NCBI GenBank assembly: GCA_963700315.1
Contig: CAVOXC010000006.1
Coordinates: forward strand, 58,546-122,545
DNA length: 64,000 nucleotides
Reading direction: 5' to 3'
Source: an uncultured Acidobacteriota bacterium
Lineage (GTDB): Bacteria > Acidobacteriota > Thermoanaerobaculia > Multivoradales > JAGPDF01
This document shows positions 2,769 through 26,182 of the stretch, in pieces. Below the pieces are notes generated by a model. The model did not search any database. It was not told the DNA's origin and saw only the letters and a program-made list of their open reading frames with translations. Positions within the stretch are counted from its first letter, which is position 1. Each line of letters starts with the position of its first letter. The position numbers and the translations under genes are program-made.

Positions 2769-3570
2769 GCGTCGGCCCGCTTCGCTCTCCCGTCCGCTCT
2801 TGCACCCGCGGCCGCTCTAGAGCAAGACTGGCCGCGATGCTCCGCCTCGCCGTCCGCTTCGAGAGCAGCGTCCGCCGCTTCCGGCTTCCGGTCGCCGAGG
2901 TGACTCTCGGCGCTGATTCCGATTGCGAGCTGGTCGCGCCGTTCCCCGGCGTCTCACGCCACCACGCCACCGTCCGCCCGCTCGACGGCGGATTCCTCGT
3001 CAAGGACCTCGACTCGAAGAATGGACTGGTGAGAGACGGCGCGCGGCTCTCCGAGGTGCTTCTGCGCCCCAGGGACACCATCCGCATCGGCCGCGCTCTG
3101 CTCGAGCTCGAAGAGGTCGACTCCTCGGACGCCGCGGTGGCTCTCTCGATCGCCGCCGGCGCGCCCCGCCGCCACCGCAAGGAGAGCGACACCGGCTCTC
3201 TCACGGAGCTGCCAGGAGCCGGCTCGCCGGCCGACGCCCTCGCCCTCATCCGCGAGGTCGAGCGCGCAGGGGACATCGACCCGTCGCGCCCCGACCAAGC
3301 GCGCCACCTGCTGGAGCTGGCGCGAACCGCACTCGAAGCGCCCGCGGTCTGGATCTGGACGGGAAGGAGCGAGGGCGCGCCGCCGATCGTCGCCATTTCC
3401 GGAACGCTACCGGAGGATGAGGAGCTCGATCGCATCGCCCAGTTGGCGGCCAGCGAGGGCGACCCTCGAGCCGAGGAGCGCGGCCAGCACGCCGCTCTCT
3501 TCGCGCCGATCAGACCCGGGCGACCCGGCTTGGCCGCAACCTTGCTTGGCTCGTCCGAGAAGATCCCCGA

Positions 3571-4719
<1,149 letters not shown>

Positions 4720-5084
4720 TGGGTGCGCGGCGAACTGGAACCAGCCCCTCCTAGCAATTCGCGGTCGTTCGCCGCTCTTCAGATCGAGCCACAACCACTC
4801 GTGCGTGTTTGTCCGACCTAGGAGCCTGCGCGGCAGAAACCGGTATGAGGAATCAGATCCTGAGTATCGCTCAGGGTCGACGATCTCGAGGTGAGCAAGG
4901 TCCGGAGATCCCCCAATATCGGGCGAAAAGCATTCTGCCGCGCACGCTCCAAGACGATATGGAGCGACCGGCCCCCCGGTCGTAAGTTCGAGGTGTGAGG
5001 CCTCGAGGTTGCCGGCGCGTGTCCGGCGATTTCGCGGGTTACCACCGAGACGGCGGCAGAGCCGCAGACGACGAGGAGCCGATC

Positions 5085-6017
5085 ATGAGAAACGCTAGCA
5101 CGACGTTCGTCGGGATGGATGTCCACAAGTCGACGGTGACGGTGGCTCGGTTGGCACCGGGAGCGGAGATGCCGGAGTTCTGGGAGCTGATCAACGAGCT
5201 GCGGGCGGTCCGTCGTCTGGCCAAGAAGCTGTTGCGGGAGGCGCCGGGCGAGGTGTCCTGCTGCTACGAAGCGGGGGCGTGCGGGTATGCGTTGCAAAGG
5301 CAGCTGAGAAGGGAAGGGGTGGCGTGCGACGTGGTGGCGCCGTCGCTGGTGCCGCGCAAGCCGGGCGAGCGGATCAAGACCGATCGCCGCGACGCCAGGA
5401 AGCTCGCCGAGTACTGGCGCAGCGGGTCGCTGACGGTGGTCGAGCCACCGAGCCCGGAGCAGGAGGCGGTCCGGGACCTGGTGCGTTGCCGCGAGGACGT
5501 GAAGCAGGATCTGCTGCGCTGGCGACACCGGTTGAGCAAGATGCTCCTGCGTCGGGGCTTGGTGTTTCGCGAGGCCCGGGCCTGGACCGCGCGTCATCGC
5601 GCTTGGCTTCGCGGCCTGCGCTGGGAGCAGCCGAGCGACGAGATCGTCTTCACCGAGTATCTGATGGCGGTCGAGCTGCTCGAGGAGCGGCTGCGAGTGC
5701 TCGACAAGGAGCTCGCCAAGGTGGCGACGAGCGAGCCGTACCGCGAGCGGGCAGGCAGGCTTCGCTGTTTCCGCGGGATCGACACCGTGAGCGCGATGAC
5801 CGTGCTCGCCGAGCTGCACGGAATCGAGCGATTCGACTCGCCGCGACGGCTGATGGCGTTTCTCGGGCTGGTCCCGGCGAACACTCGAGTGGCGAGAGCG
5901 AGCGTCGAGGCGGGATCACCAAGGCCGGCAACTCGCACGTCCGTCGAGCGCTCGTGGCAGCGGCTTGGCACTATCGGCATCGTCCGGGAGGTCACGTCAA
6001 TAGGTGTGTAAACGGCA
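5085..6017 (+). mobile_element. IS110-family transposase gene, frameshifted and 3'-truncated
   Basis: MRNASTTFVGMDVHKST... (DEDD-type N-terminus) and RFDSPRRLMAFLGLVP (Transposase_20-like). The expected continuation, SGESERRGGITKAGNSHVRRALVAAAWH, is in another frame (ORF 5279..6049), implying a frameshift near 5875. The gene abuts the IS256 fragment. Confidence 0.75.
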
Positions 6018-6830
6018 TCAGGCGGCGGCCTCTCGGTCGCTGGTGTTGATCTTCTCGACGACACGCACTCCATCCTGGTACTTGGCGCCCTCGGCGACCT
6101 CCGCGAGCAGCTGCGGATGATCGAGTCTGCGAAACGACCGTTCGGCAACGAGTAGGACGCGCCAGATCAGCGCGGTCGCGTTGGCGACCTTCTTGAAGCG
6201 CTTCGCCGCCGTCGTTCGTAGGCGCACGGCAGCGAAGGGCGACTCGACGATGTTGGTCGTGCGCAGGTGCTTCCAGTGCTCTTTCGGAAAGCCATAGAAG
6301 GTCACCATCCGCTCCCAGTCGGCACCTAGGATTCTCGCCGCGTCGGGGTAGGCCTTGCCAAACTGCCCGATGAAGGCATCTCGCTTCTTCTCGGCTTCTT
6401 CCAGCGTTTCGCAGTAGGGAATCGCGCAGAGCAGCACCCGGGCCTCGGCTTGCCGCTTCTTCGGCAAGCGGTCGAGCACGTTGACGATCTTGTGATTCCA
6501 GCAGCGCTGCTGCTCGACTTCCGGAAAGATCTCACCGAGCGCCGACCAGATCCCGAGGTGACCGTCGGCGACGACGAGCTTCGGCATTCGAAGACCGCGG
6601 GCCTTCAGGCTCCGCACCAAACTCGACCACGACTCTTGCGATTCGCGATACCCAGGCTCGACCGCGAGCAAGACCTTGCGGCCGTCGCGAAGACCGGCGA
6701 TCACCACCAGGAGCGCGGCTTTCTCTTTCTCCAAACCCGCCTTGACGTAAACCCCGTCGGCCCACAAGTACACCGGCTCGATCCCCGTAAGAGGTCGCGT
6801 CCGCTCCAGACAACATCCTCTTATAGGGGT
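6018..6830 (-). mobile_element. IS256/Mutator-family transposase gene fragment (N-terminal third missing)
   Basis: YLWADGVYVK, LVVADGHLG, QRCWNHKIVNVLDRLPKK and TTNIVESPF are motifs of IS256-type DDE transposases. There is no homologous N-terminus. Confidence 0.75.
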
Positions 6831-7261
6831 CTTCATCGCGCCTCCCGGAGGCCGAGAGCGCCAAGCAACTGAGCGCTGCGGTCTTTTCCTTCGCGGTGAC
6901 TGCAAAGAAGGTTGTCGCTAGGGGATTTCCGATCACTCTTGGATCGAACTACGACCGTTGGAAGCAGAGCAAGAGATTCAGCCTATTGATGGCGTATCTC
7001 GCGGCATGTCGGGACGCTGAGAACATTGCTGGCTCTCGCACGAGAAGGACTGGGCACAGACCTTGCGACGCAAAGATCTAGTCTTCGGTGTCTCTCAATG
7101 GGTTCATTGAATGTGCCCCAAGTGGTGACCCCGTGGCCGAGCTACACGGCGGGTGCCCTGGACCTCGTCACAACCGCGGCGCTCTCCAGTGGTCTCCGAT
7201 CGCTGATCGATCTTGGTTCGACCTTGGCGCACTGGGCGACAGACCGGAAGGAGGTGGATCA

Positions 7262-8287
7262 ATGGCATCAAGTAGGGTTTCGAGAGGGGTCGCTGCCGGG
7301 ATGCTCGTCTGCTTTAGCCTTCTGTTGAAGGGCTGCACTCTCACCCTCCTCTTCATCTCATCGATCGTGGAGGACGGGGATGCGGTCACCGTCGTTCTAG
7401 AGGGCGACCCGGATGGACAGGGGGGCGGGGCGTCTCCACAGTTTCTGAAAGCCCATGTGCCAGAGTCATGGAACCTGGCTTCAGCGACGTTCTCGGGCAC
7501 CAGCAACGGCGACCGGATCTATGGGTCGGGAGAAGTGATCCCGAATCCCCCGAGCTGCGATGGTTGCCTCTGCGGCCCACCCGCCGGCTATCAAGAGCTG
7601 CGCATCGCGCCTGAAGCAGGGATCTTCCCTTTCAACGGAACCGACCAAGTTACGATGACCCTTAGGTTCGTAACCGCAGGCGCTGGTTCGCAACAGGTCT
7701 ATTTCAAGCTCTGTCTCAACAACTCTTCAAATGTCATTGAGGCGAGCGTAGACGTACTGCCTGCGGGCACTGGACTGGTCTTCGCCGACAACTTCGAGAG
7801 CGGCACGATCGCGCCGTGGAGCGTTCACCTGGCGATTGACAATGGTGGGTTCGAGTCGGGAGATGCGTTCTGGAACCCCGACTCCATTCAGGGCATCGAT
7901 CCGATAGTCGGACCGGGAGCGACACCGGTGACACCCTACGCAGGCGACTGGCTCGCTCAGCTTGGGACCGTCGACTCCGAAGTAACCTATATTGTGCACG
8001 AGTATCTCCAGCTTCCAGTCTCACCCTATCGGGTGAAATACCGGCGGTGGGTCCAGTCGACCGAAGTTGAGTGTAACCATGACTACTTCGCCATCGACTT
8101 CAACGGCATTCCCGGAGTCGTGCTTCCCCTTTGTGCCGCCACCGAGACCGGGGGATGGGAGGAATCCGAAGCCGATCTCTCTCCCTGGGCTGGGCAGTGG
8201 GTCTTGATCGGCCTCGGAGGCTACACGGACGCTTCGGTGCCGAGTTCCGCTTACGTCGATCAGCTAGAGCTAACCAATACACCATGA
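7262..8287 (+). CDS. Exported hypothetical protein (possible lipoprotein) with jelly-roll/CBM-like C-terminal region
   Basis: Internal ATG at 7262 gives MASSRVSRGVAAGMLVCFSLLLKGC (signal, weak lipobox). DNFESG / GGFESG motifs. Visibly lower GC than the flanks. Confidence 0.5.
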   Translation: MASSRVSRGVAAGMLVCFSLLLKGCTLTLLFISSIVEDGDAVTVVLEGDPDGQGGGASPQFLKAHVPESWNLASATFSGTSNGDRIYGSGEVIPNPPSCDGCLCGPPAGYQELRIAPEAGIFPFNGTDQVTMTLRFVTAGAGSQQVYFKLCLNNSSNVIEASVDVLPAGTGLVFADNFESGTIAPWSVHLAIDNGGFESGDAFWNPDSIQGIDPIVGPGATPVTPYAGDWLAQLGTVDSEVTYIVHEYLQLPVSPYRVKYRRWVQSTEVECNHDYFAIDFNGIPGVVLPLCAATETGGWEESEADLSPWAGQWVLIGLGGYTDASVPSSAYVDQLELTNTP

Positions 8288-8474: not shown

Positions 8475-9092
8475 TTGCGAAGCGCCCATGCCTGTGCCGA
8501 GCCCGGCCTGCACTGCATCCTCCTGGGACTTCTCGTGTGCTCATCGTCGAGCCATGCGCAGAACCTGATTCCCAGCGGTGAGTTCGACTCGGATCCCATC
8601 GATGCCGGCTGGTCTGTGAATCCAAACGCGCCCGTCAGTCTCGGGCCCGACTCCGACGAATGTCAATTCTCGTTCTCTTTTCATGTCGGGAGCTTTCCAG
8701 CGGTCCCACCATTTCAGCTCTCCGAGGCCGAGAGCCCCTGCTTCCCAGTCGTCGAGGGCACTCGCCTTTTCACCTCCCTGCGAACCCTCTCTCCGGCAAG
8801 CGGGTCCCTATATCTCGATCTCTCCAGCGACGCCAATTGCGGTAGCTACGTCGACACTATTGGCTTCATCCCATCCGGCTTCTCGGCTTCCGCGAGTTTC
8901 GCTACAACGACCGCACAAAGCACGCTGATTCCTACCGGTCAGGGAATCGTCTCGGCCGCGATCGGCTTCAGCTCCGACTTCGCAGGAGAATTCGAGGTCG
9001 TCGTCGATCGGTGGTACGTCGGCGCTTCAAACCCAATCTATCTGGACGATTTCGAAGCCCAAGAAACCTGCCGCTGGAGCCTCACGCAGTAG
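8475..9092 (+). CDS. Secreted hypothetical protein
   Basis: Signal-like N-terminus ...LHCILLGLLVCSSSSHAQN. C-terminal DDFEAQETCRW resembles the D.FE motif of the preceding gene. Lower GC. Confidence 0.45.
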   Translation: MRSAHACAEPGLHCILLGLLVCSSSSHAQNLIPSGEFDSDPIDAGWSVNPNAPVSLGPDSDECQFSFSFHVGSFPAVPPFQLSEAESPCFPVVEGTRLFTSLRTLSPASGSLYLDLSSDANCGSYVDTIGFIPSGFSASASFATTTAQSTLIPTGQGIVSAAIGFSSDFAGEFEVVVDRWYVGASNPIYLDDFEAQETCRWSLTQ

Positions 9093-9120: not shown

Positions 9121-9969
9121 CTAGCGCCGCGTCGCGATCACGAAGTCCTGGTAGGGCGGGGTCTCGGCGCGGTGGCCGCGCCACCAGCCGCGGTGGATGG
9201 CGTCGAGTTGGAGGTCGAGGCGGGCGAGCTGAGCGAGGAGCCAGGGCTCTTCGAAGCCGACCGCGGCTTCGGGATCGGCGGGGTCTGCGATCCAGGTTGG
9301 ACCCTCGTGCGGAGCGAGCTTGGGCTCGGATCGCCGGGCGGCCGACTGGCGCTTGGCGATGTCGTCTATCAAGAAGCACGTGAAGACGCAGCGTCCTCGC
9401 GGGCGCAGGCAGCGCGCCATCTCTTCCCAGTAGCGCAGCGCCGAGCGCTCGAGCAGGTGGGTAAAGAGCGAGGTTGCGAAGGCGAAGTCGAAACAGGCGT
9501 CGTCGTAAGGGAAGCGAAAGGTCTCCGGGTCGATCGTCCCCTGCAGGTTGTACGCGGAGTTGTGAATGTCGACGTGCTGAAAGCGGAAGTGGGGGACGTG
9601 TTGCCCGATGAAGGCGCGGTCCCACTCGATCATCTCGCGCACGATGTCGAACCCCTCGTACCACCCCCGCCGCGACAGGTAACCCTGGAGCTGAAAGGCG
9701 ATCCGCCCGAGGCCGCAGCCGACGTCGAGCACGCGGTGGTGCGGCATGAGCCCGCAGCGCTGAATCAGGAACTCCGTGTTCTCCCGACCCGTCTCCCAGA
9801 AGTTCCCCTCGCCAATCGCGCCGACCAGATGTTGCGGCAGGAACTGCAGCAGGTGCCGCGCCTCCGGATTCGTGACGAAACCGTTACGGTACTGCCAGTG
9901 CCGGCGGTATCCGTTCAACCGATTCCACGGCGCGCGCAGCCAGCGCGCCAGACGCCCCGATCCGGTCGT
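9121..9969 (-). CDS. Class I SAM-dependent methyltransferase
   Basis: Motif I VLDVGCGLGR, then FDFAFATSLFTHL and LRPRGRCVF. Start uncertain (ATGs at 9969, 10008, 10047). Confidence 0.7.
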   Translation of the reverse strand, partial: TTGSGRLARWLRAPWNRLNGYRRHWQYRNGFVTNPEARHLLQFLPQHLVGAIGEGNFWETGRENTEFLIQRCGLMPHHRVLDVGCGLGRIAFQLQGYLSRRGWYEGFDIVREMIEWDRAFIGQHVPHFRFQHVDIHNSAYNLQGTIDPETFRFPYDDACFDFAFATSLFTHLLERSALRYWEEMARCLRPRGRCVFTCFLIDDIAKRQSAARRSEPKLAPHEGPTWIADPADPEAAVGFEEPWLLAQLARLDLQLDAIHRGWWRGHRAETPPYQDFVIATRR

Positions 9970-10220
9970 CATCTCCCCTTTCTCGGATTCCTGTGACTCT
10001 TCGACCATTCCGGACGCGCCTCGAATCCTCAGGTGGGCCGAGACCAATCGTCCCGGAGTCGATAACTCTAAACGACGCGCGAGCCCCTGTCACCGGGAAC
10101 GGCTGCCGAGCGGCGTCCCTTCCTTGCGCTCCCCACTCCCAGGGCGTACTGTGGGCCGGAGCGAACCGCCCTGACTCGGTCGCCCGCGGATCGCGGGGCC
10201 TGGAAGGTGAGGTGACGTCG

Positions 10221-10742
10221 ATGCCTCGTGCGCTGTTGGTCTATCCGGAGTTTCCGCCCTCGTACTGGGGGTTCCGGTATGCGCTCGAGCTGGTGGGGAA
10301 GCGCTCTTCGATGCCGCCGTTGGGTTTGCTCACCGTCGCCGCGATGTTTCCGTCCTCGTGGGAGCTGCGGTTGGTGGACCTCAACGTCCAGCCTCTGCTC
10401 GACGCCGACATCGAGTGGGCCGATCTGGTGCTCACGTCGACCATGGTCGTGCAGCAGCGCTCGTTGCGCGAGGTGCTCACGCGGTGTAACGCCTTGTGCA
10501 AGCCGGTCGCTGTCGGTGGGCCGCATCCGACCTCGTTCGCGTCCGAGATCGTCGGGGCGGATTACTTCCTGCTGGATGAGGTCGAGGAGACCTTCCCGCG
10601 CTTCCTCGCCGACTTCGAGGCGGGGCGGGCGGCGCGCGAGTACCGGCCCGAGTCGAAGCCGGCGGTGACCTCGACGCCGGTGCCGCGGTTCGACCTGCTC
10701 GATCTCTCGGTCTACGGGTCGATGGCGCTCACGCTACTCTGA
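10221..10742 (+). pseudogene. Truncated duplicate of the 5' end (B12-binding domain) of the radical SAM gene at 12305
   Basis: MPRALLVYPEFPPSYWGFRYALELVGKRSSMPPLGLLTVAAMFP... is colinear with 12305-12814 without indels. Homology ends at 10730, just before the CxxxCxxC motif, and a stop follows at 10742. Confidence 0.8.
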
Positions 10743-10816
10743 CGGGAACGGAGACGGCTCGCGGAGCGAGCGGCGCTCGTGGGCGCGCTCGGGTGGGCCG
10801 ACGTCAAACCGCTCGT

Positions 10817-11632
10817 TCAGCCGGGGCGCATGACGGGTAGGGCCCCGCCGATCCTGCCGGCGTGGAATCGCAGCTCCCCGCGCGCGAGCGCGGCCTCGAG
10901 CGCGTCGGGCGGCTGGCGGCAGAGGTGGCCACCCGAGTCCAGGACGGCACGCCCTACCTCCTCGGCCGGCAGGTGCTCGACGATCTCGCGCGCAGCGGCG
11001 ATCAGGGCGTGCCAGCGGCGCGACAGGTCCGCGGCGTCCGGCCGCTTCCCCGCGAAGGCCAGCGGCTCGAGCTCGACCGCGCTGTATCTGCCGTTCTTCG
11101 CGGCGTGCTCCACGAGCAGCGAGGGACCGAAGCCGGGGTCCTTGCCGCACGCCGCCCAGGCGAGGTAGCCGAACGGCTGAAGCCGCTCGTGGCAGGAGAC
11201 GACGTCGACCCAGTCGCGCGGCTCCAGGCGCCCGACGAGCGCCAAGACCTTGTTGGTCGCCAAGTCGAACGGATGGAGCACGAGGCCGAGCTCGGAGTGC
11301 TCGACCAATGGGAAGAACCGGTAGCTCGAGTCGCGGCTCCATTCGACGCGCAACCTCTCCCCACCGGTCGAGACCTCCGCCTCGACGAAGCCGCGCCGCT
11401 CGTGCAGCAGCTGCAGCTCGAAGCCGGCCGCTTCGAGGCTTCGCCGATCCGCGGCGAAGGCCGCCGCGACGGCGCTTTCGGTGTCGTGGAAGAGGTCGAC
11501 GTCGCGGGAGACGCGCTCCGCGCCGAGTAGCTCGTTGAGCGCCAGGCCGCCGGCGAGGTAGCTCTCGCCAGCCGCGATGCGCCGCGCGGCTAGGAGGCGG
11601 CAGACGCGACGTTGGATCGCCGTGAGTGCCAT
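10817..11632 (-). CDS. AbiEii/DUF1814-like nucleotidyltransferase (putative toxin)
   Basis: 271 aa. N-terminal YLAGGLALNELLGAERVSRDVDLFHD resembles the GG.AL....R.S.D.D.F motif of AbiEii-type nucleotidyltransferases. Confidence 0.55.
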   Translation of the reverse strand: MALTAIQRRVCRLLAARRIAAGESYLAGGLALNELLGAERVSRDVDLFHDTESAVAAAFAADRRSLEAAGFELQLLHERRGFVEAEVSTGGERLRVEWSRDSSYRFFPLVEHSELGLVLHPFDLATNKVLALVGRLEPRDWVDVVSCHERLQPFGYLAWAACGKDPGFGPSLLVEHAAKNGRYSAVELEPLAFAGKRPDAADLSRRWHALIAAAREIVEHLPAEEVGRAVLDSGGHLCRQPPDALEAALARGELRFHAGRIGGALPVMRPG

Positions 11633-11856
11633 TGCCGGAGCCGCCGCGCGCGCGCGAAGGTGGCGCGATCGCCGCGCCGCTCGATCGCCCGGAGCGTCGC
11701 CTCGATCTCCGGGTCGGTCCGCGGCCGATAGTCGGGCCGCAGATACCAGAGGCAGCTCGACCGCGCCTCGTCGATCAGCTCCCCGAGCTCGCCTTCGAAG
11801 CTCGCGGCGTCGGGCACGGGGTTGCTGTCGGCTCGCGCTTCGGGCCGTGCTTTCAT
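11590..11856 (-). CDS. Small partner protein of the nucleotidyltransferase (putative antitoxin)
   Basis: ATG at 11856 gives 88 aa containing LWYLRPDYRPRTDPEIEATLRAIERRGDRATFARARRL. It overlaps the NTase start by 43 nt. The rest of ORF 11590..12306 is P/R/S-rich and not protein-like. Confidence 0.35.
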   Translation of the reverse strand: MKARPEARADSNPVPDAASFEGELGELIDEARSSCLWYLRPDYRPRTDPEIEATLRAIERRGDRATFARARRLRQWHSRRSNVASAAS

Positions 11857-12304
11857 TGGCTCATTGTACGGGATACCGGTCGAGTGCCTTCCGCGGGACG
11901 CGCTCTCGTCGATCGCGGTCTCGAAGAGGTCGACCCTCGTAGCGAGCGAGGCAGGCCCACGGAGCCCCCCTTGCAAGCCCGTCCGCGGCTCGACGGGCGC
12001 TCTGCCAGCTCGGCTGCGAAGCGCAGACAGACCGTCGCGAAAGCTCTCCACCGAACGGGAAGGGTGGAGCGCGCCGAGGCGCTTCGCTGTAGGCGAGGGG
12101 GCGTTCGGTGACACGGGAGGTGCTGTGAGCGGTGCGGCCATCGCCGACCCCTTCCGTCGCGCTACTGTCGCAATCGTGTCAGGAGTGCGTCCTACGCGGT
12201 CGAGCGACCTTGTGGCCGGTGCCTCCGGGGAGTACCCTGACTCCGCAGCCGGTTCGACATCGAGTCGACCTCTGCGGGTCAGTCCTGAAATCAGGGGGTC
12301 CCCC

Positions 12305-14596
12305 ATGCCACGCGCGCTTCTGGTCTATCCGGAGTTCCCACCCTCGTACTGGGGGTTTCGGTACGCGCTCGAGTTCGTGGGGAAGCGGTCGTCGATGCCG
12401 CCGTTGGGGTTGCTGACGGTCGCCGCGATGTTTCCGTCCTCGTGGGAGCTGCGGTTGGTGGACCTCAACGTCCAGCCTCTGCTCGACGCCGACATCGAGT
12501 GGGCCGATCTGGTGCTCACGTCGACCATGGTCGTGCAGCAGCGCTCGTTGCGCGAGGTGCTCGCGCGGTGTAACGCCTTGTGCAAGCCGGTCGCAGTCGG
12601 TGGGCCGCATCCGACCTCGTTCGCGTCCGAGATCGTCGGGGCGGATTACTTCCTGCTGGATGAGGTCGAGGAGACCTTCCCGCGCTTCCTCGCCGACTTC
12701 GAGGCGGGGCGGGCGGCGCGCGAGTACCGGCCCGAGTCGAAGCCGGCGGTGACCTCGACGCCGGTGCCGCGCTACGACCTGCTCGATCTCTCGGCCTACG
12801 GGTCGATGGCGCTCCAGTTCTCGCGCGGGTGCCCCTTCGACTGCGAGTTCTGCGACATCACCAAGCTGTTCGGGCGGGTGCCGCGGACCAAGAGCAACGA
12901 GCAGATCCTGACCGAGCTCGAAGCGCTCCATGCGCTCGGCTGGCGCGGGTCGCTCTTCCTCGTCGACGACAACTTCATCGGCAACAAGAAGGAGGCGCTG
13001 CGGCTGCTGCCGGCGGTCGCCGAGTGGCAGCGCGAGCGCGGCTACCCCTTCGACCTCTACACCGAGGCGAGCGTCAACCTGGCCAAGCTCGAGCCGCTGC
13101 TGGACGCCATGGTCGCGGCCGGCTTCTCGATGGTCTTTCTCGGCATCGAGAGCCCGAACCCGGAAGCCCTGCGCAAGACCAACAAGCTCCAGAACACCGC
13201 GAAGGACGACCGCGACTTCCTGCTCCATGCGGTCACCGCGATCCAGGAGAAGGGGATCGAGGTCACCGGCGGCTTCATCTTGGGGCTCGACGGCGACGGT
13301 GCCGAGGTGTTCGACGCCCAGGTCGAGTTCATCCAGCGCGCCGGGATCCCGATCGCGATGGTGGGCCTGCTGACCGCGCTCAAGGGGACGAACCTCTACA
13401 CCCGGCTCGAGCGCGAAGGGCGTCTCCTCTCCGAATCGACCGGCAACAACGTCGAGATCGCGCTCAACTTCGTGCCCGAGCTCGACCGCGACCTCTTGAT
13501 CGACGGCTATCGCGGAGTCCTCTCGGCGCTCTACGGACCCGACCTGCGCGCCTACTTCGCGCGCTGCAAGACGCTGCTGGCGCGACTCGGCAAACGACCG
13601 CGCGCCCGGCGGGCGCCTTCGCGCGCCGAGCTCCTGGCCGGGTTCCACTCCCTGCGCCTGCAGCTCTTCTCGCCGCAGGGCCCGGCCTACGCCGCGTTCC
13701 TCGCGCACACGCTGTTGACCCGGCCTTCGCGCATCGGCGAGGCGATCCGCATGGCCGTCAAGGGGTGGCACTTCCAGCGCTTCACCGCGCAGACGCTCGC
13801 CTCGCATGCCTATCGCGAAGCGGCGCTCGAGGAGTACGGCAGGGTCGAGGGGTTGCTCGAGCGCGCCGTGGCGGCGCACGACCGACTACGGCGCACGGTG
13901 GAACGACAAGTGGCGATCACGATCCGGCGGCTGCGGCGGCGCTACCGGCGGCTGCGGCCGGAGTTCCGGCAGGGCTTGCTGCCCGACCGCGCGGGGATCG
14001 AGAGCGCTCTTCGGGAGCTTGTCAGCGAAGTCGCCGGCCATGAGCTCGTTCGCCGTTGGACCCCACGCTTCAGGACCGCATTCTCGACCGAGACCTGGCG
14101 CAACGCGCTGGAAGCGGCGGGCTACCAGCCCGCCGATCGTCCGCTTGCCGGCGGCGCTCCGCCGACGGTGGCGATGGCGCCGATGGTCGAGCACGCGCGC
14201 TTGCGCCGTTCGCTCGAGCAGTTCTTCCGCGACCTCGGCATGCGGGTGGTGACGACGGGCGAGCAGCTCGCCCATCTCGGCCAGGAGGGTCTCGAGCGGA
14301 TCCACGCCCTCGCCGAAGCGCCCGAGCGGGTGAAGAGCTACCTCCTGGCCGTCGCCGAGCGGGTCGACACCCTGGTCGTCCCGGGCGCCGAGGGGTTGGG
14401 CGAGCTCGGCGGCAAGGTGCAGCTCCTCGCCGCCAAAGCAGCCGACCGCGCCGCGGCGCTGCCGCGCCTCGTCTGCGTCCGCCTCGAAGGGAGCCGCCGC
14501 GAAGTGCGCGCCGGCCTGATCGAGCTCGGCGTCGCCCTCACCGGCGACGCCGCCCGCGCCGAAGCCGCCTCGGAGCGGGCGCTGGCGTTGATCTGA
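12305..14596 (+). CDS. B12-binding-domain radical SAM protein with long C-terminal extension
   Basis: Start taken at MPRALLVY, supported by the duplicate at 10221. SRGCPFDCEFCDI (CxxxCxxC), FLVDDNF, FLGIESPNPE. A DUF4070-like region (...IRMAVKGWHFQRF) is followed by about 200 further residues of unknown type. Confidence 0.85.
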   Translation: MPRALLVYPEFPPSYWGFRYALEFVGKRSSMPPLGLLTVAAMFPSSWELRLVDLNVQPLLDADIEWADLVLTSTMVVQQRSLREVLARCNALCKPVAVGGPHPTSFASEIVGADYFLLDEVEETFPRFLADFEAGRAAREYRPESKPAVTSTPVPRYDLLDLSAYGSMALQFSRGCPFDCEFCDITKLFGRVPRTKSNEQILTELEALHALGWRGSLFLVDDNFIGNKKEALRLLPAVAEWQRERGYPFDLYTEASVNLAKLEPLLDAMVAAGFSMVFLGIESPNPEALRKTNKLQNTAKDDRDFLLHAVTAIQEKGIEVTGGFILGLDGDGAEVFDAQVEFIQRAGIPIAMVGLLTALKGTNLYTRLEREGRLLSESTGNNVEIALNFVPELDRDLLIDGYRGVLSALYGPDLRAYFARCKTLLARLGKRPRARRAPSRAELLAGFHSLRLQLFSPQGPAYAAFLAHTLLTRPSRIGEAIRMAVKGWHFQRFTAQTLASHAYREAALEEYGRVEGLLERAVAAHDRLRRTVERQVAITIRRLRRRYRRLRPEFRQGLLPDRAGIESALRELVSEVAGHELVRRWTPRFRTAFSTETWRNALEAAGYQPADRPLAGGAPPTVAMAPMVEHARLRRSLEQFFRDLGMRVVTTGEQLAHLGQEGLERIHALAEAPERVKSYLLAVAERVDTLVVPGAEGLGELGGKVQLLAAKAADRAAALPRLVCVRLEGSRREVRAGLIELGVALTGDAARAEAASERALALI

Positions 14597-14624: not shown

Positions 14625-14814
14625 GAGGCGCTGCGCGTTCGGCGCTGCGCCGCTTCGATCCGCGCAAGAAGCTTCGGTCATGGGTCGGCAGGACAGGAAG
14701 GGTGGCGTTACGCGTTGGCGACGCGCTGATCCGGTCGTGCGCGGAAGCTCCCTGGAAGGGTTGGGATTCCGAGCGCTGAGGCGCTGCGCGTTCAGCGATG
14801 CGCCGGTTCGACGG
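14625..14814. repeat. Second short repeat family (two copies here, a third near 25110)
   Basis: GAGGCGCTGCGCGTTCGGCGCTGCGCCGCTTCGA at 14625-14657 and GAGGCGCTGCGCGTTCAGCGATGCGCCGGTTCGACGG at 14778-14814. Related GGCGCTGCGCCGTTCGACGGG at 25110-25130. Confidence 0.6.
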
Positions 14815-15079
14815 GTGCAAAGAGGTTCATCGAGGGGTTGCGGGCTCGAGCGAATTGCCGCTGCGCGTCGACCGGCCACGGGCGACGAAGGCTCGTGATC
14901 GTCCGGCCGAGCGTCGTGCGAATCGTCAGGCGCCCGCGGTGACGGCGCTCCCCCAGATCTGCCAGCTTCCTCCACCGTGCGCCGGTGCGCTGACGAGGCC
15001 GTCGCCACCTCCGTCTTCAAGGCCACGGTTTTTTCCGCATCACCCCTCGCGTCCTTCGCCTACCGCAACAGATCCTCCC

Positions 15080-15116
15080 TTGACACGGAACCGGTTGTAA
15101 GTATTTGATACTTACA
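15080..15116 (+). promoter_or_regulatory. Candidate promoter and palindromic operator of the abrB-doc module
   Basis: TTGACA at 15080-15085, TATTTG at 15102-15107. Perfect palindrome TGTAAGTAT-TTG-ATACTTACA at 15096-15116 ends on the A of the ATG start. Confidence 0.5.
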
Positions 15117-15361
15117 TGAAGAGAAAGCTCGTTCAGGCCGGAGGCTCGCTGGCGGTGACACTGCCCGCCGAGGTGGTGCAGGAGCTCGGGCTCGAGAAGG
15201 GGATGACGGTCGACGTGTCGGTCCATCCGCAGACCGGCGCCGTGACAGTCCGCGCGGGCGTGAAGCTGTTCGAAGAGGGTCGAATCACCTCGCGGTTCGA
15301 GCAAATGGCCGAGTCGATCGCCCAGCGATTCGACGAGACGTTTCGCGACTTGGCGAAGTGA
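15116..15361 (+). CDS. AbrB/MazE/SpoVT-type antitoxin
   Basis: MKRKLVQAGGSLAVTLPAEVVQELGLEKGMTVDVSV is the swapped-hairpin AbrB-type motif. Its stop overlaps the Doc start (GTGA). Confidence 0.75.
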   Translation: MKRKLVQAGGSLAVTLPAEVVQELGLEKGMTVDVSVHPQTGAVTVRAGVKLFEEGRITSRFEQMAESIAQRFDETFRDLAK

Positions 15362-15750
15362 TCGAGTACCTTTCGCTCGAGCAGGTGCTGGTGCTCCACG
15401 ACTTTCAGATCCGGCGCTACGGAGGCGCCCGTGGACTGAGGGACCGAGGCGCGCTCGAAGCCTCGGTCGCACGGCCGCGAGCGACGTTCGGAGGCGAGGA
15501 CCTCTACCCCGACCTCGCAGCCAAGGCGGCTGCGCTACTCCACTCTCTCTCAGCGAACCATCCGTTCGTGGACGGCAACAAGAGGGTCGCCGCCCATGCC
15601 GCCCTGCTCTTTTTGGAGGGGAACGGGTTCGAGCTCGAGTCGACTCCGTCCGCGCTCACCGCGCAGGTCTTGGCAGTCGCCCGCGGCGAGGTCGAGGCGG
15701 CGGCGCTGGCGATCTGGCTGCGGCAGCGGCTGCGCGTGCTCGAGCCCTGA
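15358..15750 (+). CDS. doc: Doc (death-on-curing) Fic-family toxin
   Basis: HPFVDGNKRVA Fic/Doc motif; 130 aa; GTG start. Confidence 0.85.
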   Translation: MIEYLSLEQVLVLHDFQIRRYGGARGLRDRGALEASVARPRATFGGEDLYPDLAAKAAALLHSLSANHPFVDGNKRVAAHAALLFLEGNGFELESTPSALTAQVLAVARGEVEAAALAIWLRQRLRVLEP

Positions 15751-25392: not shown

Positions 25393-26182
25393 TCAGCGCG
25401 TCGCTGCGGCGAGCTCGCGGGCCTTCTCGACGAACGCCTTGCGGCTGCGGCAGCCGCCGGCGGCGGTGACCAGGGCGCTGCCGACGACGACGCCGTCGGC
25501 GACCTTGGCGACTTCGCGCACCTGCTCCGGAGTCGAGACGCCGAAGCCGACGGCGATGGGGAGCGCGAGCTTGCGCCGCAGCGCGCGCACCTCGCGCTTC
25601 AGATCCTGGCGCACGCTCGCGCGCGCTCCGGTCACACCCGCGCGGCTGACGTAGTAGACGAAGCCGGAGCCCGCATGGGCGACCCGCCGGATCCGCTCCT
25701 TGGTGCTGGTCGGGGCGAGCAGGAAGATCGGGTCGAGACCGCTCGCCGCCGAGCGCGTCGAGATAGGCGCCCGCGGCCTCTTCCGGCGGCAGGTCGACGC
25801 ACAGCACGCCGTCGACGCCGCACTCGGCGGCGTGCTCGGCGAAGCGCTCGACGCCATAGGCCAGGATCGGGTTGCAGTAGCTGAACAGGACGATCGGCGT
25901 CGCGATGCCGCGGCCGCGCAGCCGGGCGATGAGCTCGAAGATCTTCTCGAGCGTCACGCCCTCGGCGAGCGCCCGCTGCGCCGCGGCCTGGATCGTCGGT
26001 CCGTCGGCGATCGGGTCGCTGAACGGCACGCCGACCTCGATCAGGTCGGCCCCCGCCTCGTCGAGCGCGGCGAAGAGCTCCTCGCTCGCCGCGAGCGACG
26101 GGTCGCCGGCGACCAGGAAGGGCACGAACGCCGCGCGCTTCTCGACGCGGCAGAGCTCGAAGACCTCGGCGATCGCGCTCAT
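25393..26182 (-). CDS. trpA: Tryptophan synthase alpha chain (apparent single frameshift near 25740)
   Basis: N-terminal part [28 protein letters not shown]...[15 protein letters not shown] in one frame; C-terminal part [12 protein letters not shown]...[13 protein letters not shown]...AVGFGVS in another. Confidence 0.8.

Follow-up and report, generated by a model that had tools for sequence, protein, structure and literature searches.

A 64,000-nucleotide stretch of contig CAVOXC010000006.1 from an uncultured Acidobacteriota bacterium (assembly GCA_963700315.1; this whole stretch is called the window) carries the 5' end of a radical S-adenosylmethionine (SAM) gene twice, and between the two copies lies an oppositely oriented gene pair, one member of which encodes a nucleotidyltransferase (NTase) of the DUF1814 type. 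This arrangement raises the question whether the duplicated sequence delivered the gene pair, whether it serves a function or whether it is the trace of past recombination. A preliminary description of the locus had suggested that a cassette of toxin–antitoxin (TA) or abortive-infection type arrived by homologous recombination with the radical SAM 5' end as homology arm. Our analysis leads us, with moderate confidence, to a different reading. According to this reading, the locus consists of one working radical SAM gene (12167-14596, upstream region included) and a chimeric relic (about 10123-10742) of a second copy, which carries a gene-conversion patch, so that the whole would be a multi-step scar. 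We consider the structure best read as an ordinary, legible recombination scar and not as a functional device or a demonstrated case of homology-arm delivery.

Mosaic structure of the repeat

When the two copies were compared (repeat finder, BLASTN), positions 10221-10730 (copy A) and 12305-12814 (copy B) were found to be directly repeated without gaps and with an unchanging offset of 2084, 490/510 nucleotides (96.08%) being identical. The colinear duplication described previously was confirmed by this pairwise alignment, which required no indels. It is the sole long repeat of the region, and a tBLASTN search with the full protein detected no further fragments of the radical SAM gene in the window.

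The 20 differences between the copies are unevenly distributed. Fifteen of them fall within nt 1-114 (10226-10334) and five within the 396 nt that follow (nt 115-510), so that the earlier hand counts of about 16 and 5 were essentially right. The diverged 5' segment of copy A (10221-10334, plus strand) comprises codons 1-38 and its differences change a single amino acid: 13 are synonymous third- or first-position exchanges and the other two hit one codon (L24F). Since these changes are nearly all synonymous, this part diverged inside a functional gene. The homogenised segment of copy A (10335-10730, plus strand), which comprises codons 39-170, is 98.7% identical to 12419-12814. Its five differences (10479, 10511, 10688, 10690, 10711) include two synonymous and three non-synonymous exchanges, and three of the five fall in the last 43 nt of the segment (p ~0.01 under uniformity, by our own calculation).

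The optimal breakpoint was found after 10334 (Fisher p = 4.5e-7; matched by 0/2000 permutations) and the next difference between the copies is met at 10479, so that the junction must lie within 10335-10478. A recombination or conversion endpoint near 10340 had been proposed, and our data support it and resolve its position to this interval. From left to right, the copies become more alike: their identity is near-random in the leader, 87% in codons 1-38 and 98.7% in codons 39-170. In codons 1-38, copies A and B are about as similar to each other (87.5%) as copy B is to its closest relative, locus L001 (86.7%). Beyond codon 38, the high A/B identity persists, whereas copy B and L001 share only ~85%.

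On the right-hand side, radical SAM homology between the copies stops at 10730/12814. Past 12814, copy B runs on as ...ALQFSRGCPFDCEFC / ...QFSRGCPFDCEFC..., and copy A continues past 10730 with three unrelated codons (...AL-TLL-stop) up to the stop codon at 10740-10742. The truncated open reading frame (ORF) that results (10221-10742, plus strand) encodes 173 aa, in which Pfam recognized the B12-binding domain PF02310 (38.8 bits) and no Radical_SAM domain. Copy A ends six codons short of the first Cys of the CxxxCxxC cluster and is thus not a member of the class B radical SAM proteins; the loss of homology before this cluster and the stop at 10742 had been recognized correctly before. Behind copy A, an 86-nt spacer (10731-10816) extends from the non-homologous junction 10730|10731 to the NTase stop codon, and this spacer resembled neither copy B nor any of the loci fetched.

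To assign the near-identical tract to one of the two lineages, we compared both copies with L001. Here, we found that codons 39-170 of A and B share residues otherwise present only in L001 (EIVGAD, LADF, VTSTP), and that L001 also shares Phe24 and an upstream block with copy B. The identity of copy B to L001 shows no step along the gene and thus no lineage switch. Because the shared residues are of the B/L001 type and no such step exists, the tract is B-type: either B overwrote A, or the right part of A began as a B copy. Since homogenisation, copy A has undergone three unique changes and copy B one, and the Ala164Val exchange in copy A hits a position that is invariant in 14/14 orthologues. 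The changes in copy A would fit relaxed constraint on the stub, the numbers being small.

Upstream flanks and coding potential of the stub

The flanks upstream of the two start codons had been called unrelated. We aligned the 160 nt that precede the start codon in both copies and in 15 close orthologues and came to the opposite result, since both flanks carry the promoter-like motif of the family, a homologous leader and a Shine-Dalgarno region. The layout common to the family consists of CTTGCGC, 17 nt and GTAcgCT about 96 nt before the ATG, followed by a leader ending in ...GGCCTGGAAAG-purine-rich-ATG. The pattern CTTGYG-N17-GTAY has exactly two matches in the window (10123-10149 and 12209-12235; 0.08 expected) and it was also found 95-107 nt upstream of the radical SAM orthologues in L001, L010, L090, L092, L093 and L095.

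In front of copy A, this promoter-like motif (10123-10149, plus strand; CTTGCG-N17-GTAC, or TTGCGC-17-TACTGT) is located 98 nt before the ATG. The leader and Shine-Dalgarno region that follow (10150-10220, plus strand; …GGCCTGGAAGGTGAGGTGACGTCG-ATG) align with the leaders of L089, L091, L092 and L096 and only poorly with that of copy B. The native upstream region of copy B (12167-12304, plus strand) contains a 21-nt block (CAATCGTGTCAGGAGTGCGTC), the motif at 12209-12235 and the leader. The 21-nt block is common to copy B and L001 (L001 7865-8000), lies ~135 nt before the ATG and may represent an operator. The two promoter-like sites are 2086 nt apart, compared with 2084 nt for the genes (2-nt indel). 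Across the 763-aa radical SAM subfamily, the promoter-like element and a leader of ~95 nt are kept in most close relatives. Rfam searches of the window and of 9900-12500 detected no known RNA in this conserved leader, and RNAalifold predicted no consensus structure for 13 leaders.

Since both flanks carry the family promoter and leader, copy A is the head of a second, diverged radical SAM gene and not a bare homology arm. Judged from the alignments, the repeated unit comprises a putative promoter, the leader and 170 codons (~650 nt), and its left ~255 nt are diverged at the species level. It had been suggested that the stub might still be expressed, and this remains plausible: with the promoter-like site, a good Shine-Dalgarno sequence and the open frame, a 173-aa B12-binding fragment could be made. 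Nothing points to selection on the stub. Exact-protein look-ups with the intact radical SAM protein and with the 173-aa stub returned no other contig.

The intact radical SAM gene and its relatives

Copy B extends into an intact gene (12305-14596, plus strand) for a class B radical SAM protein of 763 aa. Its B12-binding (PF02310), Radical_SAM (PF04055, with the CxxxCxxC core) and DUF4070 (PF13282) domains follow each other in the order usual for this class according to Pfam, and they are followed by a C-terminal extension of ~260 aa. By this additional region and by the lack of an equivalog, copy B differs from the known class B radical SAM proteins with DUF4070; no NCBIfam equivalog reached its cutoff (best 64.6 bits vs 251). 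The gene presumably relies on its own promoter region for expression. Orthologues of 763 aa that are 76-85% identical were found in metagenome contigs of Thermoanaerobaculia type, and the more distant named relatives (64-67%) are Thermoanaerobaculia (Acidobacteriota). Genome and metagenome scans yielded no sister strain (best N-terminal match 88% aa) and no locus in which the gene pair lies upstream of the radical SAM gene.

Among distant relatives of the radical SAM gene, tandem pairs of full-length paralogues spaced 1.8-2.3 kb from start to start were observed in Poribacteria (L018, L022, L036, L037, L042), in metagenome-assembled genomes of Terriglobia/Versatilivorator (L040, L046) and in Acidobacteria (L048). 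Their occurrence in these distant genomes indicates that two-copy states of the gene arise naturally. An ancient tandem paralogue as the source of copy A was considered, and it was kept as a minor sub-scenario only, since none of the close 763-aa relatives has a tandem pair. A radical SAM relic of another kind was seen in L119 (1179-1807), where residues 4-154 are joined out of frame to ~723-748 with an internal deletion of ~1.7 kb.

The nucleotidyltransferase and its partner

The NTase gene (10817-11632, minus strand) encodes 271 aa and was assigned to the DUF1814 (AbiEii/MenT-fold) enzymes by its AbiEii profile match, by structure prediction (AlphaFold2, Foldseek) and by invariant motifs. 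In a hidden Markov model search, PF08843 matched at 36.1 bits (cutoff 22.5) over profile positions 2-222 of 238, which bears out the earlier claim that an oppositely oriented AbiEii/DUF1814-like NTase with a small overlapping gene lies between the copies. PADLOC models for AbiEii gave marginal matches, NCBIfam gave none and a PDB sequence search returned nothing meaningful. For the AlphaFold model, which was built on 32 homologues and has a mean predicted local distance difference test score (pLDDT) of 85, the best PDB match in Foldseek was the Helicobacter pylori DUF1814 protein 4ok0 (E 6.5e-6). Comparison with Mycobacterium tuberculosis MenT4 (6y56) gave an E of 1.2e-4, a probability of 1.00 and template modelling (TM) scores of 0.54/0.51 over 264 columns. 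Mutagenesis of AbiEii identified G49/G50, R63, D67/D69, K173, R180 and D192 as residues required for toxicity (Dy et al. 2014, PMC3985639). In our NTase, G28, G29, R40, D44, D46, K128, R135, D140 and D143 are invariant in the 32 homologues and the AbiEii motifs I-IV (hG[GS]…R…DhD; K…R; downstream Asp) are present, the last Asp being matched by position only. The pair is a widespread chromosomal module, and the NTase family is very large (>3600 matches), its members being typically 60-70% identical and ~271 aa long.

The partner gene (11590-11856, minus strand) encodes a predicted three-helix protein of 88 aa and overlaps the NTase start by 43 nt. It was identified by the signal of the GC content at third codon positions (GC3), by its family, which has 239 cluster representatives, and by an AlphaFold2 model with a pLDDT of 83. 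A longer ORF of 238 aa (11590-12306) was rejected as partner, since GC3 periodicity was seen only from ~11860 down and the homologues have 75-110 aa. The ~300 nt upstream of the partner (11857-12159) are presumed to contain the promoter region of the pair; they showed no coding periodicity and no similarity to the upstream regions of the radical SAM genes or to other NTase loci. An identical 43-nt overlap of partner and NTase is present in L083, L084/L085, L166 and L167. In the overlap (11590-11632), which codes for the partner tail (W-L/H-S-x-x-S-S-x-x-S-A-x-S) and for the NTase start (M-A-L-T-x-L-Q-R-x-V-C-R-L-L), both reading frames are conserved, and such conserved dual coding suggests tight translational coupling.

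The partner had no Pfam match at E<=1, and the AbiEi models of Pfam matched 0/47 members of its family. In the PDB, neither a sequence relative (phmmer, E<=10) nor a fold match to any chain was found. Since the partner is a helical protein of 88 aa without AbiEi match, it is not AbiEi and filing the pair as AbiE is unjustified. Of the AbiEii-like pair described before, the NTase is upheld by profile and motifs.

By analogy with MenT and AbiEii, we assume with moderate confidence that the NTase moves nucleotides to RNA, most likely to tRNA 3' ends, and the translationally coupled partner would neutralise it by direct binding. What weighs against this assumption is that a TA module would not usually be so strongly conserved and syntenic. 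Given this housekeeping-like behaviour, a regulatory function without toxicity has to be taken seriously as an alternative.

Origin of the gene pair

None of the 15 close radical SAM loci carries the pair (0/15). In L083, L084 and L166, we found it in a conserved neighbourhood (DedA/VTT - partner - NTase - ... - trpA, trpB), where it lies 3-4 kb from trpA/trpB. The window contains trpEGDCFBA (32064-25396, minus strand) on the same side of the pair at a distance of 13.7 kb. Its Trp proteins are 50-82% identical to those of L166, and the NTase shares 66% of its amino acids. Since the NTase divergence falls within the Trp range and trp synteny is retained, the data fit a pair that descended vertically in this chromosomal region, the lineage of the window having undergone an inversion and further rearrangements.

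Signs of mobility were scarce. In 2.9 million viral contigs, the NTase family produced only two partial matches, and on plasmids it was found only at <40% identity. Between 10731 and 12166, there is no gene for a recombinase, an integrase or a transposase. Terminal inverted repeats of the kind expected for a miniature inverted-repeat transposable element or a cassette were rejected as well, because the best match around the pair was reached by 457/500 shuffles. Without a recombinase and a significant terminal inverted repeat, the segment is not classified as a transposon, a mobile cassette or an integron cassette. Thus, the earlier view that a cassette arrived on a radical SAM homology arm agrees with the absence of the pair from the close radical SAM loci, but trp synteny, housekeeping-like divergence, the lack of mobility genes and the rarity on viral contigs and plasmids speak against it.

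The 1.43-kb segment without radical SAM homology (10731-12159) has the heptanucleotide CGCTACT at both edges (10732-10738 and 12160-12166, both plus strand), and homology to the radical SAM upstream region of L001 begins immediately after the right copy. Such a direct repeat is expected by chance at ~3%, as assessed post hoc. It may represent the microhomology used in an illegitimate join.

Two further observations concern the neighbourhoods of both genes. A DedA/VTT gene was considered as a link between the radical SAM and NTase neighbourhoods and was discarded, since the VTT protein of L001 is only 24% identical to that of L084 and the window contains none. In the Spirochaetia locus L070 (OZ242313.1, 6001-8791), a homologue of the radical SAM family is followed immediately downstream, in convergent orientation, by a distantly homologous version of the pair (55% / 34% aa). 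This is the only other co-occurrence of the two among ~165 loci and may be due to chance.

Reconstruction of the recombination history

In the history that we favour, promoter, leader and codons 1-38 of the relic would stem from another radical SAM lineage, be it a displaced allele, a xenologue or an old paralogue, and this part would have diverged while under protein-level selection. Codons 39-170 would be a recent copy of the intact gene, which may have been acquired in two equivalent ways. Gene conversion or recombination may have transferred a patch from B to A, the left end of which falls within 10335-10478. Alternatively, a recent partial duplicate of B may later have had its left part replaced by a foreign allele, which would have entered together with the low-GC island that bears insertion sequences (IS) and is described below. 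The illegitimate junction 10730|10731 would have fused the stub to the segment with the inverted NTase pair, upstream of the other copy. At least two events, the illegitimate junction and the patch, would thus be needed, and their order is a matter of inference. Within this group of Acidobacteriota, the NTase pair itself would have been inherited vertically next to the trp operon, and at this locus it is inverted.

Several points weigh against this history. Gene conversion is inefficient between repeats that are only ~87% identical. No sister genome with or without the structure was found that could polarise the events, the closest radical SAM protein being 85% identical (aa) and the closest NTase context 66%. 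The heptanucleotide repeat, with its chance expectation of ~3%, could mean that the segment with the pair was inserted as a unit. The sequence is a metagenome contig that is known from the assembly alone. Finally, three of the five differences in the homogenised part lie within its last 43 nt, which speaks mildly for an internal conversion tract that stopped short of where homology ends, but two of these three are unique non-synonymous exchanges that resemble later mutations, and the character of the clustered changes thus mildly favours later mutation.

The alternative that survives best, which we nevertheless regard as unlikely, is delivery from another genome. A TA or abortive-infection cassette would have travelled on DNA with the radical SAM 5' end and promoter as homology arm, would have been integrated by a Campbell-type event or by homology-facilitated illegitimate recombination (HFIR) and would have left the resident head as a stub; heteroduplex or mismatch-repair conversion during this event would then account for the near-identical tract. 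The insert is indeed bracketed exactly by the homologous segment in direct repetition, the right join to the gene is seamless, close radical SAM relatives are without the pair and a symmetric heteroduplex could produce the succession of diverged, identical and slightly diverged parts. HFIR has been documented as a process that leaves behind displaced fragments of genes, but its frequency lies orders of magnitude below that of ordinary recombination (PMC5361080). A seamless homologous junction and an illegitimate one, which often shows 3-10 nt of microhomology, are expected of it; this geometry fits the locus and the heptanucleotide repeat marks the edges of the non-radical-SAM segment, whereas a foreign origin of the pair is unsupported by synteny. 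A plain crossover predicts differences on both sides, but the copies diverge by 13% on the left side of 10335 and by 1.3% on its right side, and copy B does not switch lineage against L001. Reciprocal hybrid repeats that are diverged on both sides of a crossover, as Campbell-type integration would leave them, are thus absent. The B-type nature of the shared tract, the apparent vertical inheritance of the pair near the trp operon, the lack of mobility genes and of significant terminal repeats, and the near-absence of the pair from viral contigs (with only <40% identity on plasmids) also argue against delivery. Since a single crossover does not give the observed pattern without additional heteroduplex repair and a foreign origin of the pair, we assign low weight to this explanation.

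Clearly less probable still is a chimera, in which the assembly merged two co-occurring strains or species across near-identical stretches of 144-176 nt. The sequence does come from an assembly of an uncultured organism, the genes for a sigma-54 activator (2837-3610/3571-4719) and for trpA are frame-split, which suggests an imperfect consensus, and exact repeats of up to 176 nt are typical places for assemblers to switch paths. However, the junction 10730|10731 is not located at a repeat and must therefore exist in the reads. An independent Logan contig (ERR12037370, 1539 nt) encodes an identical NTase and would span ~10712-12250 across this junction by coordinate arithmetic only; by the same gene-coordinate arithmetic, it would end one base short of the single-nucleotide difference at 10711. 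Moreover, one of the strains would have to be 13% diverged in codons 1-38 and still near-identical from codon 39, so that the mosaic would be real anyway.

We judge it similarly improbable that the pair is a new, very widespread DUF1814 type of TA system or regulator placed between in-frame repeats of 396 nt, whose addiction could block the RecA-mediated pop-out by which the pair would otherwise be lost and the radical SAM gene joined to the upstream promoter, making the locus a TA-locked partial duplication. Least probable of all is a functional arrangement, in which the stub is a selected stand-alone B12-binding protein or the repeats form a switch that excises the pair and swaps the radical SAM promoter while the addictive pair keeps the duplication from collapsing: the stub does have a promoter-like motif, a Shine-Dalgarno sequence, an open frame of 173 codons and an intact B12-binding domain, and recombination of the in-frame repeats would presumably regenerate an intact hybrid gene, but copy A holds the derived state at three of the five positions that came to differ after homogenisation (two of these changes being non-synonymous, one of them at the invariant A164), a comparable stub with insert occurs in no other of the ~165 loci and the only other truncated copy (L119) is a plain internal deletion.

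Comparison with known systems

The AbiE systems (AbiEi/AbiEii; type IV TA and abortive infection) of Streptococcus agalactiae and Lactococcus (PMC3985639) resemble the gene pair in that they are bicistronic, with the small gene first and overlapping a downstream DUF1814 NTase that carries motifs I (GG), II (R…DxD) and III (K…R) and the conserved Asp. They differ in their antitoxin, since AbiEi consists of a winged helix-turn-helix at the N terminus and a C-terminal neutralising domain, whereas the partner in the window has 88 aa, is all-helical and lacks a winged helix-turn-helix as well as an AbiEi/COG5340 match. Furthermore, the overlap amounts to 43 nt instead of 4, the PADLOC match to AbiEii is marginal and, in its synteny and conservation, the pair behaves like a housekeeping locus.

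In M. tuberculosis, MenA1 is a helical antitoxin of 68 aa that blocks MenT1 (PMC10435456). According to the structural models, our pair is similar to MenAT1 and MenT4 (6y56) in that a MenT-fold NTase would be preceded by a short helical protein without DNA-binding domain. Unlike in MenAT, the partner has no sequence or fold match to antitoxin chains, and the NTase is only ~15% identical to MenT4. Thus, the enzyme has the MenT fold, but the partner shows no kinship to MenA1 or to the COG5340 antitoxins MenA3/MenA4 and the resemblance is one of kind only. A working model along the lines of MenAT is plausible, in which the toxin would add nucleotides to tRNA 3' ends and the partner would block its active site. 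The structure that comes closest to our NTase model is that of JHP933 from H. pylori (4ok0), which is a putative DUF1814 NTase but shares only 13% identity (TM-score 0.45-0.53) and has another genomic setting.

The stub recalls gene fragments displaced by homology-anchored replacement, such as orphan Rhs or contact-dependent inhibition (CDI) toxin tips and the type VI secretion effectors of Vibrio cholerae (PMC5361080), where part of a gene is likewise doubled, the remnant lies next to new DNA, and one junction is seamless and the other illegitimate. Unlike in these systems, the remnant in the window is a 5' end with promoter and not a 3' tip, belongs to an enzyme and not to a polymorphic toxin, and was partly overwritten by the intact copy. 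If our reading is correct, the locus is a clean natural example of a gene 5' end that survives with its promoter as a stub and is then partly overwritten by gene conversion, and the third-position differences date the older part of this stub. It also suggests that a duplication bracketing an insert should not be read as homology-arm delivery before the flanks and the synteny of the insert have been checked. The gene pair belongs, with a non-canonical partner, to the known DUF1814 NTase modules, and the understanding of TA systems and of recombination is unaltered by it. As a by-product, the analysis brought up a DUF1814 subfamily that is large and uncharacterised; its partner is no AbiEi, and none of the described families matches it.

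Genomic setting

The left flank of the locus is a plasticity zone in a rearrangement-prone region of the genome. It contains a PIN-domain gene (1712-2089), which may encode a VapC-type toxin, and an FHA/sigma-54 activator that is split into two frames (2837-3610 / 3571-4719) and orthologous to a single 622-aa gene of L001. An IS110-family transposase gene (4995-6011) is adjoined by an N-terminally truncated Mutator/IS256 transposase gene (6018-6905), and two hypothetical genes with low GC3 follow (7088-8287, 8475-9092; 0.66-0.70 vs 0.82-0.93 elsewhere). The segment 4995-9092 upstream of the stub looks like an acquired island. A methyltransferase gene (9121-10047) lies between this segment and the stub. 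The gene for trpA (25396-26143) is also split, its two tBLASTN pieces meeting in different frames near 25747-25750. Both the activator and trpA may be pseudogenes or may reflect indel errors of the assembly, which bears on the trust to be placed in single-base details.

Downstream of the radical SAM gene, a MazE/AbrB-type antitoxin gene (15116-15361) overlaps a Fic/Doc toxin gene (15358-15750). In front of this pair lies a textbook TTGACA-N17-TAAGTA promoter, the -10 region of which is covered by a palindrome (GTAAGTATTTGATACTTAC); promoter and pair together occupy 15075-15750. Counting the PIN gene, three TA-like modules are present within 16 kb. Another close relative, L002, has a PIN + DUF6364 pair (10289-10938) directly adjoining the radical SAM gene at its 3' end, and in several lineages TA-like modules seem to be concentrated near this gene. 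A GC-rich element of 51 nt, the core of which (GAGGCGCTGCGCGTTC...) has no further occurrence in the window, is found twice after the radical SAM gene (14625-14675 and 14778-14828), the two copies being 80% identical and 153 nt apart.

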